Source of the DNA: Eledone cirrhosa
Taxonomy: Eukaryota
Direction: 5' to 3'
Length of the DNA: 64,000 nt
NCBI GenBank assembly: GCA_964016885.1
Contig: OZ024742.1
Location: 137,950,001-138,014,000 of the forward strand
How positions within the stretch are numbered: the stretch's first letter is position 1; each line of letters opens with the position of its first letter. The notes beneath the pieces are model-generated. The model did not search any database and was not told where the DNA came from. It was given only the letters and a program-made list of their open reading frames with translations. Shown here in pieces: positions 7,946 through 48,783 of the stretch. The position numbers and the translations under genes are program-made.

Positions 7946-8160
7946 GGAATAGAATGAAACGAAATTTCATTTCTCACTCTGATACGGCACTTACTTAAAT
8001 GTAAGTATGTATGTAAGTATACGTACATACATATATGTATACAGACGTATGTATATATATATACATACATGCACACATATATATATATGCACGTATCGGT
8101 TTACCGAACATTTATTATAATGCTCGGTTTGTTTGTAAACAAACAAACAGCCCGAATTAC
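7942..8160 (+). repeat. Dispersed repeat family L, circularly permuted relative to 34485-34965
   Basis: Shares GAATGAAACGAAATTTCATTTCTCACTCT and GGTTTACCGAACATTTAT..CGGTTTGTTTGTAAACAAAC with the 34.5-35.0 kb element, in a different order. Confidence 0.75.
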
Positions 8161-8164
8161 GTAA

Positions 8165-9102
8165 ACGTCTCTACCAACCTTCCTAGGGCTTTCTTCTCAC
8201 TACTAGATAAACACTTTCCATCCGGCCACAGGTACCACGGCCTTTTAAACAAAAACACTATTAAGATCTCATACTCTACTACGCCTAACTTAGCATACCA
8301 CATAGCTAGTACAAATAAAAGAAAAATTAATTCTTACTTCCAACAAACTAAATCACAACGGCCGATAAACCTTCAAAATAACATTCAAAATGACAGTCAA
8401 AGTAACATTATAACAAATAACCGTAATATCAATGGAAATAGTAGTAATAGCACTAGTGTAAACATTAACGCTGCGTACCACAACCCGCATAACCATAACC
8501 CTATAGCTAACCTCCAAACTTCTACACAGCATAGTAACCGGCAGACTAGCACCCAGAGTAATTGTAACTGTAGATCAAGTAGAACCTGCCCTTTAGATAA
8601 AAAATGCTTAACCAAGGATATCATATACTCATGTACAGTCACAACTAACAGCTCTTCTGAAACCTACATAGGCTCCACTTCTAACTGCTTCAAAACTAGA
8701 TACAATTCGCACCTCCACTCTTTCAAAAAACACAGTCTAGCCAACTCCACTTCACTATCTAGCTACATACACTATCTAAAAACTAAATATAAAATATATA
8801 CACTTAAATGGGAAGTGGTAGGTAGTGCAACATCGTACAAACCACCCGATAAATTTTGTAACCTCTGTCTACTAGAGACCCATACTATCATCTTCTCTAA
8901 ACATAATCTCCTTAATAAAAAATCAGAAGTGTTCGCAAATTGCCAACACCGCTTCCGACACTCGTTCCAAAACTTTAAACCTATATATAATAATGTCAGA
9001 CTGGAACCGGCACCACCCCTAGCAATTAACATCAGTAGCACACCTTACACCTCACATCCACACCCATCTCTATACTCTAAAGATAATACTGACAGCATTT
9101 GA
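8165..9102 (+). CDS. C-terminal part of a PLE polyprotein (linker + GIY-YIG endonuclease), open frame; the ATG at 8035 lies in upstream repeat sequence
   Basis: GIY-YIG motifs (DIIY..YIG..R..H), a Cys-rich linker and a C-terminal CxxC..CxH. Confidence 0.8.
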
Positions 9103-11606: not shown

Positions 11607-11609
<3 letters not shown>

Positions 11610-13940
11610 AAAGTTAAAGAAGGTTCAATGAATAAATCAAAGACTGTGCTTTACAATAGATTGGAAGCACTCAACAGTAAAAGTTTTCCCAGAGTTATTA
11701 ATATTAATTCAAAATATTAACAAAATAGATATTCTTGTGATCAATTATATTTTATTATACATATTTCAGAGGTACTGAGTTAAGTTCAACAGTACGTCCT
11801 CATCAGATAAAATAAAATGATACATGACATACCCTGACATAGTAGATGGTTAAGATTCAGTCATGGTAGTGAATAAATTATGACAAAACTCAATATTTAT
11901 ACCCTAATATTGAGAACATGAGATAACGTACTACAAACAATAGAGAGAGTGCGTGTAATAGAGTTTAAGATATACATGGCATCAATATAACAGTTATAAT
12001 ATTTTTTCAATTTTTAAAAACTACTGGAGAAAGAAATTTTGAGGAAGACCTGCCAGTTAGACTGATTGCTCCATCCAAATCGGGTACTGGGGTAATCAGT
12101 AAAAATATTATTGATAGAATTCTACCTATTTTGAAATTGAGGTCTAAATTGAGCTTGTGGAAGGATACAAATGAAATGATTGAATGGTATAAAAATATAG
12201 ATGATAAGAAAAAGCGTAAATTCATCCAGATGGACATAACAAGCTATTACTCTTCCATTGCGCCTAACCTACGAAATAAGGCTTTATCATACGCTTACAA
12301 ACATACTGATCTAACTACGGATTAAATTGATATCATATTGACTGTTAGAAGAAATCTAATTAACTTCAAGAATGAGTATTGGACCCGCTCAGATAGAAAT
12401 AGAAACTTCGACATTCACATGGATCATCTAATTCAGCGCAAATCACGGATCTTCTGCGGATTTTCATCTTAAATATGATAAATAGAAAACTGCCGGAGAT
12501 TACCGGTGGTTTATATAGGGACGATATTTTATTTACGGTTGTTAAACACAACAATATAGAACTAAATAGGGTAAGGAAAAATATAATTGAATCCTTTAAA
12601 AATTACGACCTTAAACTAGAGGTAGAAAGTGGTACCAAAATAGTTAATTTCCCTGATGTTACCCTTAACTTAAACTCTGGTTTTTATTACCCTTTCTATA
12701 AGCCCAATGAAAACTTAAATTACGTTAGTTATTACTCTAATCACCCCAAATCTGTGAAGAAAGCAATTGTAAATAGCGTACAAAAACGCATAAATAGAAT
12801 ATCTGACAATAAAACATTATTTGATGAAAATGCAGGATATTACAATGATGCGCTGAAAAAGGCAGGTTATAAAAATAATATAGAATATTTAGACAATAAT
12901 AATCCGAGTGTTAATCCTGATAAAAATAATGGAATATATAAACGAAATTCTATAAATTCTAATAATTGTAATTCAAACACCTGTACTGTGAATAAATCGG
13001 GGAAAAGAAACAGAACTAAATCAGTTATATGTCCCCCCCCCCCCCCCCACCCTCACCCCACCCTGCTTCTGTAGCAGTAAGAATATCAATAGCTAATCTA
13101 TTTTAAAGCTTTAGATAGTTCATTACCTAGTCAACATAAATACCACTCCATATTTAATAGACACACAATTAAACTGTCTTATTCTACAACTATGAATATG
13201 GCCCAAAATATCGCTAAAATAAACAGCATAATACTAAACCAAAATCAACATAATGCTATTAATATTAGTGTTAATATAAATAATAATAAATCAAAATGTA
13301 ATTGTAGAAATAAACCAGATTACCCTCTGCAAAATAATTGTCTGGATAGAAATCTGGTGTGTAAATGCACCGTAAAAACAAATAACAACACATACAACTA
13401 CATAGGAGCAACTTCTTCGACATTTAAATCGACATTTGCGGACATGTGTTGCATTTTGGACATGTGTTGCAAATATGGAAATCTGTGTATATAAACTTGA
13501 ACATAAATTACTCCCCTTTCTCTCTCTCTTTAATCATCTTTCATCTGTTTTTTCAAGCCACCTACTAAATATATTATCACATCAGCTGTTTCTTCCTCTA
13601 TGCTTTCCTTTTCCTCCTCTTTCTCCAGTAGTTTTTAAAAATTAAAAAAGTTATAACTGTTATATTGATGCCATGTATATCTTAAACTCTATTACACCCA
13701 CCCTCTCTATTGTTTGTATTATGTTATCTCATCTTCTCAATATTAGGGTATAAATATTGAGTTTTGTCATAGGTTATTCACTACCATGACTGAATCTTAA
13801 TCATCTACTATGTCAGGGTATGTCATGTTTCATTTTATTTTAACTGATGAGGACGTACTGTTGAACTTAACTCAGTACCTCTGAAATATGTATAATAAAA
13901 TATAATTGATCAGAAGAATATCTATTGTGTCAATATTTGA
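11607..13940 (+). mobile_element. Penelope-like element: inverted pseudo-LTR, RT, partial GIY-YIG and 3' pseudo-LTR
   Basis: RT motifs MDITSYYSSI, YRDDIL, VNFPDVTL and SNHP (12040-12900, disrupted); CNC..PL..CL..YIGATSSTFK (13192-13435). Segment 11710-12033 is the reverse complement of 13620-13940. Confidence 0.9.
13833..13900 (+). ncRNA. Hammerhead-like motif in the PLE pseudo-LTR (copies on the minus strand at ~11750-11815 and ~24545-24610)
   Basis: CTGATGA at 13844, stem II GTACTG/CAGTAC, then GAAATATGTA; stem I is weak (TTTTATT/AATAAAA with a bulge). Confidence 0.6.
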
Positions 13941-14154
13941 CAAACATCACGGACGCTCTATCTCAAAATTATTTTTGAAAAGCATTAGAAATGCGCAACC
14001 GGTAAAACTTAAAACCCAAACTGAATACTAACCAATACTATTACTAATTCTCACTTATTCCTAATTAAACTATTTTTCACTGTGAACAATTTGTCAGCAT
14101 ATTCTTTTCCGTTTACCAATATATCATAACTTGTGTGTTACACCTCTATTCTTT

Positions 14155-14193
<39 letters not shown>

Positions 14194-14983: not shown

Positions 14984-15064
14984 TGTCTCCTGAAGAAAAT
15001 CCTGACTCAGGACAGTCCATATTATTTGGATGTCCTAAACAAGGAAGAAACCATGGTCGAGATA
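14984..15064 (+). ncRNA. Type I hammerhead ribozyme within an element of about 540 bp (14810-15348) between (TA)n tracts
   Basis: TGTCTC-CTGAAGA-long stem II (TCCT/AGGA, AGGACA/TGTCCT, TCCA/TGGA)-GAAAC-CATG-GTC-GAGATA. Confidence 0.85.
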
Positions 15065-15347
15065 TAATTACGGTATGTGCGCATTTCTTCGAAGTTTAAT
15101 GTTACTACTAATTACGCGCGGTTGACGATGTGTTTGATCGGATTCTGCATGCTGCCGAAGTATTTGATAAATAATGGAACGGAGTTAACGCGAACTGGCT
15201 GCGGTCAATTATTTGTCGGAGATTTCCCAGTTAGAAAATTTACTCTTAAAGCTTGGTGGATTTGATTATGTATATGGTTAATTATGCTGATTAGAGGAAG
15301 AAATAGTATATATTTTAATATCTGATTGATTCTATAGACACGTTTTA

Positions 15348-15395
<48 letters not shown>

Positions 15396-15399
<4 letters not shown>

Positions 15400-15457
15400 A
15401 GTGAGCTGTACTGATGAAGGGTGATATCCTGAAACATTACTGTCTGCAGCTCTGTTT
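15396..15457 (+). ncRNA. Canonical type I hammerhead ribozyme starting directly at the (TA)n boundary
   Basis: AAACAGt-GAGCTGTA-CTGATGA-AGGgtgatatCCT-GAAACA ttac TGTC-TGCAGCTC-TGTTT; about 13 bp of stem I and a GUC cleavage triplet at 15442-15444. Confidence 0.92.
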
Positions 15458-15579
15458 ACCTGCCAACACAAGAGCAAGAATGAAGGGGTCATTTGTTTGT
15501 TTAATTGCAAACGAATCGAATGTTATTATTAATATTCGAAAAACTCAGATTACATTTATTATATATATATAAGTATATA

Positions 15580-15650
<71 letters not shown>

Positions 15651-15651
15651 A

Positions 15652-15858
15652 GTGGAGAACTCTGGAAGGTAATATCCGTAGTGGTAGAGCACTCAGTCCA
15701 TGGGACGAGTTAGGTAGAAGTGGTTACACAACAGTTAGTTCACCATAGCGAGAACGATTGTCTCACCTTAGTGTTTCCTCAGCTCGTAAGAGCTGAGGAT
15801 CCGCTAAGGTGAAACAATTGTTCTCGCTATGGTGAACTAACTGTTGTCTAACCACTTC
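15652..15858. mobile_element. Fold-back element, family B, with a minimal HHR at 15790-15825 (+)
   Basis: Hairpin at 15717-15858; GAG-CTGAGGA-tCCgctaaGGt-GAAAC-AATT-GTT-CTC; the opposite arm has GAGAC instead of GAAAC; paralogues at 21241 and 48484. Confidence 0.85.
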
Positions 15859-15860
15859 TA

Positions 15861-15895
<35 letters not shown>

Positions 15896-16843
15896 TTAGA
15901 GAGAGAGAGAGAGAGCGATAGAGCGACATTCATTTTATTATGGTTAAACTGTGAGTCTTGATACACTGGAATGTAACAAAATATGTATGCGTGTGTGTGT
16001 CTGTGTATGCAAAATCTTAACTGAAATATCACATCAAATGACACATATATCGTGTTATAGTCTGTGCGTAAGCAGGTTGTATATGGGAGAGCTTACCCGT
16101 GTCTGTAATTGTTTATATTTCATAAACTACCATTCAAAAAAAGCCGACAGGTTGAATTTATTTCCACGCTTGAAAGATAAGTATTCTCTCCTTGATATCT
16201 TCGACGTAACACATTCCACTCAGTACCTCATCAATGATGCAATGTAAAGATTGAAACCAGTAAAAGAAAGGAATATACTTACGGGTGATTTACTTGAAAA
16301 TTAAACTTAGGTATAAGTACAAACACCACTTCTATACCATCACATATTTTACTAACTTGTGAGTTACAACACTCAGAGTTTCCACATGCGGACAATAGAA
16401 GACTTATCTATTCCAATTAATTCCCAATAATATATCTTTGCTTTCTGGTTCATATATGTATTGCTTTGTCATTCGTATTCATGATATCTTATTCATAATA
16501 CATATTTCTTGTCATATTAATTCGTTATTTGCATGACAGTTGAAATACTTTTGTTAAGCTAGTGTTTCTATTACATATATTACATTCAAGTAAAATTGAT
16601 AATGCTTTTTAAATTGTATAACTTGCAATATATCAGTCTCTACACTGAAGTAACTTATATATGCTGCGCGAATTTCCGATAGTATGACTTCCGATTTTTT
16701 CATACATAATTACTCACTACAAAATTTCTACGTTTGATCTGTTGTGTAAATTTATATGAATGTATCGATGACTCTCTTTGTGTTCATGCACGTACATATT
16801 AGAAAGTCACACATACACAAACACACACATATATATGTAAATG

Positions 16844-20710: not shown

Positions 20711-21482
<772 letters not shown>

Positions 21483-47142: not shown

Positions 47143-48450
47143 TAGTCTAACAATGTTCTTTCGTTGCACATCTGCAACATCATCAGTGGTACTATTATCA
47201 TGTTTGGTGTGTATGTGTTTTGGTTTTTGTATTCTATCTTTGTTTACTAGTGAGCGTTTATATGTGTGTGTTGTTATTGTACTTGTGTATTTATTTATTT
47301 ATTTATTTATATTTCTTTTAAGTCAGTATTGTTTGTTTGGGTATGGTTGTTGTTGTTATTCCATTCGATTTTTCTGTTTAATTTTGGTTTTCTAAGCTCT
47401 ATTTCGCTCGCTTCTCTGATTTGCCTACTCGTTGGATCATTTCTATATTTAGATATTATTTTAATTTCTATGTTGTCTATGTTACAGTCATGTCTTCGTC
47501 TGGCGTGTTAGTATTGCACTGAAACGTTTTTTTTTTTGTCCATTTAATTCCCCCCAGTGTTGGTCTATTATTTCTCCTATGCTTCGAGCTGTCTCACCTA
47601 TGTATGTCGTTGTCATGTTTCTGCAAGTACCCTCTGTACATCTTATACTAAAGAATACATTTCTAGTTTTACAGTTTATCTTGGAGTTCACTTTACATAT
47701 AACACATTTCTTATTAGTACAGTGGGTTTTCTTAAAGGGGTATGTTTGGCTGATCAGGAATGTTATGGTAGTTCCTGGCTTTTCTACCACTTTAACCTAT
47801 AAATGGGTCTTTCTTAGGGCCTTTCTACATTGGTTAGCATATTTCTCCCCAGGAGTAGCATCCATGAACATGACACTCTGGTATCTCTGGTTGTCGTACC
47901 TTGAAGTGGCTTTCCCTATCTTATGTTTAGTCCTATCGAAGCTATTCCATAATTTGCTCCTGTATAATGGGCAAATTCCTTTCATGTCCATTTGTATGAG
48001 GGTCTTATACTTCGCCGTGGCTCCTTCGTATACTCTGATTCTGTCTCTTTGGTTGTAGCCAGAGAACTGGATTCGGTTGATGAAATGTTGGATATGTCTT
48101 TCCATTTCTGTTGGGTCGCACATGTGGGACACGTTCTTTCTCACTCCTACCAAGTCTGCGATCAGAATATTAAACTTAGCACTACTGGACATTGCATGGG
48201 TTTAGCATAGTGTGAGTGGAGAATTTGGGCCTCTCTTCTATAGTGTCAATCCAGAGTTTCGTGTCTAATACAGGTAGTCTATTGTTATGGTGTTTGGAAA
48301 GGTAGTCAACAGTTACCGGTATACTCAGGTGTATAGAGTTAGATATCTGCTGGATGCTTTCCATTGTGTTACGTTCTAAATAATGTACATTAGTACCCTC
48401 TTGAGGGAGTGTTCTTATTACTATATTAATATCGTCTAGGTATCGTCTAT
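47143..48450 (-). mobile_element. Penelope-like element (Neptune-like), 5'-truncated: RT C-terminus, Zn-finger linker, GIY-YIG and 3' HHR-like motif
   Basis: RYLDDI..LPVLDTKLW; CTNKKCVIC..NCKTRNVFFSIRC..YIGETARSI..H. The minus strand at 47143-47193 reads CTGATGA-tGTTGCA gatg TGCAAC-GAAA with a degenerate stem III. Confidence 0.85.
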
Positions 48451-48483
48451 ACATATATAAATATATACATGTGTATATATATA

Positions 48484-48783
<300 letters not shown>

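Follow-up and report, generated by a model that had tools for sequence, protein, structure and literature searches.

The 165-bp hammerhead-bearing copy at 15396–15560 of the window, the whole 64,000-nucleotide stretch of Eledone cirrhosa DNA analysed here, is a 5′-truncated, partly decayed piece of a 439-bp hammerhead repeat, a non-LTR retrozyme. The first-pass annotation had taken these 165 bp, a ribozyme plus a tail, for the unit itself; they are instead a 3′ piece of the longer repeat. The classification follows from the insertion marks found on a non-coding hammerhead unit, and the element is a new non-LTR retrozyme that behaves like a non-autonomous Penelope-like element (PLE). In all likelihood the truncated copy was put into its (TA)n target by a PLE enzyme acting in trans, by TPRT. 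The window copy itself is ordinary and of little importance on its own; the family carries the significance. The features of the locus are:

About 11609–14157: broken PLE-like element with RT and GIY-YIG-like frames, between (TA)n runs, 1.2 kb upstream of the copy
15350–15396, no strand: left (TA)n target, whose final TA also begins the copy, a microhomology of 2 nt
15396–15410, plus strand: truncated 5′ arm of stem I, spanning unit positions of about 2–16; the family stem extends about 10 bp further outward, and these outer pairs are absent here
15411–15444, plus strand: type I hammerhead core, predicted cut at 15444/15445 (unit 50/51)
15411–15417, plus strand: catalytic core CUGAUGA (CTGATGA in DNA)
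15418–15430, plus strand: stem-loop II; T15430 forms A-U at the position that is A·A in the family
15431–15444, plus strand: GAAA, stem III (3 bp and a tetraloop) and GUC; C15440 disrupts the family palindrome
15445–15457, plus strand: stem I 3′ arm
15458–15560, plus strand: 3′ portion of the retrozyme (unit 64 to about 194), missing 28 bp near 15493 and finishing at the family's short 3′ end
15560–15651, no strand: right (TA)n target

We examined the hammerhead by pairing and by a descriptor scan. The complete type I motif claimed at first pass was borne out, with the core, three surrounding helices of 13, 5 and 3 bp and the GUC triplet all found; the claimed cut at 15444/15445 holds as a predicted site, with C17 at 15444, and the (TA)n runs described on both sides are present. 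Stem I pairs 15396–15410 with 15445–15457 over 13 bp with a 2-nt bulge (14 bp when T15395–A15458 is added), stem II pairs 15418–22 with 15426–30 over 5 bp with one G·U and a 3-nt loop, and GAAA (15431–34) is followed by a 3-bp stem III with a TTAC loop and by GTC. The copy has the CUGANGA and GAAA core, A15.1–U16.1, H17 and an open stem I. The usually conserved G10.1–C11.1 pair is absent, being A-U in the window copy and A·A in the family; natural hammerheads with a mismatch at 10.1/11.1 are described in parts of two reports (PMC3088659, PMC7229834). An Rfam search of the window gave zero matches at gathering score, and none of 37 matches at E ≤ 10 in 15000–16200 was a hammerhead family. The motif is nonetheless beyond chance: the window contains 7 instances of its core pattern where 0.27 would be expected, and it is kept in more than 1,400 genomic copies. 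T15430 is without backing in the sequencing runs, as contigs from X1 and X2 have only the family base, which is also found in 381 of 385 X21 reads; the base could represent an allele or, with lower probability, an error of assembly.

The 439-bp unit, which falls within the range of about 150–450 bp for non-LTR retrozymes, is non-coding and has no long reading frame, the longest being 62 aa on the plus strand and about 120 aa on the minus strand. Exact 29-mer matches in the 3.0-Gb genome identified at least 1,448 ribozyme cores and at least 3,748 3′ ends, plus 257 for a variant 29-mer, and the family is spread across many contigs; the first similarity search gave 41 matches among the 40 scored of 399 candidates. 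Copies diverge from the consensus by a median of about 5% (323 alignments). The window copy spans unit positions about 2–194, carries the 28-bp internal deletion and about ten substitutions, and is a partial monomer with no adjacent copy. Partial tandems reach about 1.8 units, and loci L028 and L024 hold head-to-tail copies with two complete hammerheads each. Core-to-core spacing was 404–444 bp among the matches listed, and no array exceeding about two units was seen among the copies examined. As a circular monomer the unit folds at z = −5.4 relative to 40 shuffles. Searches of an open-access library listed no paper that describes this family or treats breakpoints at the cut site of a retrozyme. 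Run X4, which has the same species label and whose kind is not on record, contains family pieces and one deep contig with broken core positions, and none of its pieces reaches 95% similarity to the window copy across the ribozyme. Nothing matching the unit was found in three presumed-RNA runs of other organisms. Neither result bears on expression. A candidate circle, proposed from a unit-boundary joint in run data, was rejected because ordinary genomic copies have the same joint.

The anatomy of the insertions was read from 200 arms anchored on the 3′-end 29-mer (the first 100 of 3,748 and the first 100 of the 257 variant matches). Family 3′ ends fall at two sites about 37 bp apart, at unit about 193 and about 230. 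Microsatellites adjoin 78 of 88 short 3′ ends (background 10–13%) and 74 of 94 long ones, and 18 of the 200 ends continue into the next unit. For 5′ ends we used 185 arms, leaving aside 12 with unresolved SINE insertions (158–160), 2 duplicates and 1 at a locus edge. An inverted partner arm was joined in 120 of the 185, and 16 reach at least one full unit upstream. The 5′ ends vary in position, whereas the 3′ ends are fixed against microsatellites; a microsatellite lies at the 5′ junction in 20 of 65 non-inverted copies. The family thus displays 5′ truncation, an inverted 5′ copy, partial tandems, a 30–40-bp tail and a microsatellite target, which correspond to the marks listed for PLEs in a section of one report (PMC8557442: the same four with a (TA)n bias); another attributes the PLE tail to RT initiation at two internal positions (PMC11167929). 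The claim that the copy starts exactly at a microsatellite edge is correct as an observation, but this is not a favoured end, since just 2 of the 185 arms terminate within unit 1–10, under the mean rate. We attribute the start to target preference and chance, with TA microhomology.

We then looked for a partner. The broken element at 11609–14157 has a hammerhead at 13844 and an inverted copy at 11806, a layout like that of the retrozyme copies, and it has at least 150 relatives. Motifs in this coding element look like those of RT and GIY-YIG. A 750-aa relative had GIY-YIG/RT clusters in Atlas as its nearest neighbours and no notable Pfam or PDB match. Further PLE-like frames lie at 8017–9102 and 47488–48529. 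The remnant shares no sequence with the unit, and it therefore establishes that the machinery exists without demonstrating a partnership. With PLE probes consisting of seven window-derived peptides, the examination of 247 loci and of 30 PLE RT loci (one PLE family) turned up no autonomous element with sequence in common with the unit, so the partner is inferred from the insertion marks alone.

These observations bear on the idea that the unit is the pseudo-LTR of a missed autonomous PLE and the copies its 5′-truncated ends, which we regard as unlikely. Every insertion mark of the family is a PLE mark, as that idea would have it, and Xenopus retrozymes look like pLTRs in the part of a preprint that treats them (bioRxiv 10.64898/2026.07.22.740005). 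However, long copies continue into the previous unit and never into coding sequence; PLE-like protein matches, present in 18 of 247 loci at 91–1,402 bp, never extend a copy's 5′ end; the 30 PLE RT loci have no similarity to the unit; and the unit, with frames of at most about 120 aa, lacks an RT plus GIY-YIG open frame.

We placed the 5′ ends by split alignment of each junction and found 23 at unit 51–60 compared with 4 at 41–50 (185 arms; p = 0.0007), that is, 22 and 4.6 per 1,000 nt at risk, with a mean of 5.6; the 10-nt bin width was chosen after inspecting the first sample. Excluding stem I 5′-arm partners and symmetric fold-backs left 17 versus 2 (p = 0.001), although L158 and L234 are poorly resolved among the 17 and some pairs contributed both arms. 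The second sample alone, fetched after the idea arose, gave 8 versus 1 (p = 0.036), or 6 versus 1 under an alternative microhomology assignment (p = 0.087), and non-inverted copies alone gave a non-significant 5 versus 1 (p = 0.15). A second high bin, the T-rich 221–230, equals 51–60 in rate, on 6 ends. Genome-wide, 51 breaks fall exactly at unit 51 against 15 at position 41 (p = 0.0002), many of the 51 being fold-backs or small lesions; without fold-backs and same-strand lesions the counts were 17 versus 5 (66 flanks read; p = 0.03).

The excess suggests, from the breakpoints in the assembly, that reverse transcription may have run off self-cleaved RNA in vivo. We treat this family-level signal as a lead with moderate support. 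Its main rival is TGCA microhomology, a motif that recurs within the unit. Simple stalling is disfavoured, as a stronger hairpin in the unit (−59 versus −32 kcal/mol) has no pile-up, its 3′ arm having 5 ends in about 2,600 nt. A broader alternative is that the family is a satellite spread at the DNA level by microsatellite recombination, with the 5′-end excess arising independently of RT through hairpin deletion or TGCA microhomology. The stem I arms are indeed inverted repeats and several junctions are fold-backs, but the combination of fixed 3′ and ragged 5′ ends is a signature of reverse transcription, the excess survives fold-back removal both in the sample and genome-wide, and 7–8 breaks versus 1 join straight to unrelated flank (p = 0.04–0.07). 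We consider DNA-level spread highly improbable.

Some copies are altered at the cut site. Seven carry insertions there (three are non-duplicated A runs), compared with 3 and 1 at two control sites, too few to weigh. Both pre-cut bases are replaced in seven copies (L317, L339, L346, L316, L338, L355 and L307; three by AA), and L311 duplicates unit 51–66. The L311 repeat and the seven replacements may be scars left where RT traversed a junction that had been cleaved or religated.

We next compared the form and predicted folding of the ribozyme in the family and in the window copy. The stem II base is A·A in 1,448 copies and has the T form in 12 of 1,460; the stem III loop is TTAG in 72 of 85 copies and TTAC in 5. 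Three of the features that give the window copy its 'textbook' look are rare variants of the family form. With the TTAG loop, stem III becomes a 10-nt palindrome, whose 10-bp self-duplex is predicted at −8.8 kcal/mol in the family and −1.0 kcal/mol in the window copy with its changed loop. The minimum-energy fold of the window copy is not the hammerhead; in it, the core is paired with the segment that would form stem III. Taken by itself, stem III is unstable, at +1.5 kcal/mol, and the active fold lies about 4 kcal/mol above the ensemble, a predicted active fraction of 0.2%. The family monomer is predicted to be locked in a rod, 7 kcal/mol from the active form. Relative to two singles, a double hammerhead gains 12.2 kcal/mol for the family sequence and 4.0 for the window copy. 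In the two genomic tandems the double form is preferred over singles yet lies 13–17 kcal/mol above the predicted ensemble, so these nearest-neighbour energies, which leave out the tertiary core, rank options and show no activity. Covariation is practically absent, subfamily changes being mostly one-sided G-C/G·U. A reduced core mutation rate (8/604 versus 94/3,279, p = 0.027) was discarded, as the copies had been found with a core-containing query.

Cleavage of the window copy as a monomer is plausible, and we see its success in vitro as about evenly balanced. Portions of two reports describe both dimer-dependent and monomer-active animal hammerheads (PMC4209133, PMC7229834), and monomer cleavage with a short stem III in some invertebrate retrozymes (PMC7229834). 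A role on host RNA is much less probable than monomer cleavage: cutting of a plus-strand host transcript at this locus by a functional monomeric ribozyme is hypothetical, and we doubt it strongly. Such a ribozyme would draw on an intact core, a closed stem II, a stem I G-C in place of G·U and an inhibitory helix weaker than that of the family (about 4 versus 7 kcal/mol), and monomer cleavage is reported for the retrozyme hammerheads of coral and mussel, at 0.8 and 0.1 per min (PMC7229834). Against this, the improving changes come to roughly the 5% by which the median copy diverges, the T form is rare, the predicted active fraction is small, and 8 of 9 predicted Xenopus retrozymes were without cleavage in the portion of the preprint concerned (bioRxiv 10.64898/2026.07.22.740005). 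A Pfam scan of 171 ORFs of the window (21 plus 150 of 170 filtered ORFs) gave no host exon above the cut-off; the sole ORF above it was a LINE RT at 394–1245, within a broken LINE at 394–2375 (PF00078, E = 7e-19).

We propose that the retrozyme is mobilised as follows. Tandem family copies would be transcribed, and their hammerheads would cut at unit 50/51, probably with two copies joined by the palindromic stem III into a double hammerhead, giving linear and possibly circular monomers. A borrowed PLE reverse transcriptase/endonuclease would nick AT-rich DNA, and cDNA would start at the internal site at about 193 or about 230 and stop randomly or at the cleaved 5′ end. The window copy extends 50 nt beyond the cut site, which points to a template that was uncleaved, multimeric or circular; the copy would have joined the target through the TA microhomology. 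The copy is now likely a passive fossil, which may still cleave slowly if transcribed from the plus strand.

In several respects the family resembles the metazoan non-LTR retrozymes described in part by PMC7229834, with units of 350–390 bp in mussel and 330/350 bp in axolotl: a non-coding, low-GC unit of a few hundred bp with one type I hammerhead, a short palindromic stem III, head-to-tail repeats, PLEs in the same genome and a strongly folded predicted circle. The A·A mismatch at the stem II base is like that of axolotl HHR_Amex2, which has U·U (PMC7229834). It differs from the retrozymes in those accounts in that its copies are mostly dispersed, truncated and inverted and not in long arrays, in its (TA)n target without a visible TSD, in A·A at the stem II base and, relative to most of them (PMC7229834), in a monomer predicted to be locked by core pairing with stem III. 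With EN+ PLEs, as partly described (PMC8557442, PMC4209133, PMC11167929), it shares 5′ truncation, partial tandems, an inverted 5′ copy, (TA)n bias, an optional 30–40-bp tail from two RT start sites and a hammerhead upstream of the 3′ end; unlike them it has no RT or GIY-YIG frame and no sequence in common with the PLEs tested, and, unlike the minimal PLE hammerhead of those descriptions, it has a real stem III and a long stem I. The palindromic stem III and 10-bp intercopy duplex recall the newt and axolotl double hammerheads in the relevant parts of PMC7229834 and PMC4209133, whereas the window copy has a duplex of only −1.0 kcal/mol and no neighbouring copy.

If correct, the proposal would provide sequence-level evidence that PLE machinery mobilises animal retrozymes, and that retrozyme hammerheads cleave during mobilisation, two points that the papers cited here leave open. 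In the portion of Cervera 2020 that addresses mobilisation, PLEs are only 'a strong candidate' (PMC7229834), and a passage of a 2020 review presents retrozyme repeats without a motif naming the partner (PMC7761336). The tail, inversion and (TA)n marks of PLEs are countable in the 439-bp family and bear on this question. We lean slightly towards the view that the breakpoints are a germline record of ribozyme action, in which PLE-type RT often ended at the cut and self-cleaved retrozyme RNA, kept inactive in the monomeric state and cleaved in the dimer, would be a real transposition template. Parts of one study (PMC11167929) report hammerhead cleavage as dispensable in vitro for a PLE and no RNA reads at the hammerhead cut site of the anole PLE; the breakpoint excess, in contrast to the in vitro dispensability, suggests use of cleaved RNA in vivo. 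The same breakpoint test is applicable to any long-read animal assembly.

Other elements occur in the window and in the unit. A second short element lies in the same (TA)n run at 15652–15860, and also at 21245–21452 and 48482–48680; the first has a minimal hammerhead at 15793 whose stem III is palindromic, plus an inverted 5′ arm that forms the hairpin 15715–15860, and copies resembling it lie near the retrozyme in L008, L047, L061 and L040. About 15 more hammerhead-like cores in the window form five recurring families, mostly of minimal PLE type (for example, 11806/13844/24600, 20673/44873/59220, 21856/44271 and 17716/18411/46430). One ATTATTA site of the retrozyme (unit 159/160) has repeatedly received a SINE-like element of up to about 185 bp, with differing 5′ truncation (for example, L059, L060, L089, L130 and L252) and a 3′ junction visible in 30 loci. 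Unit 270–385 is a long internal hairpin of 33-bp subrepeats, expanded to about 18 in L003:811–1450; it contains two exact ATGCAAAT octamers, at unit 296 and 362, a possible enhancer.
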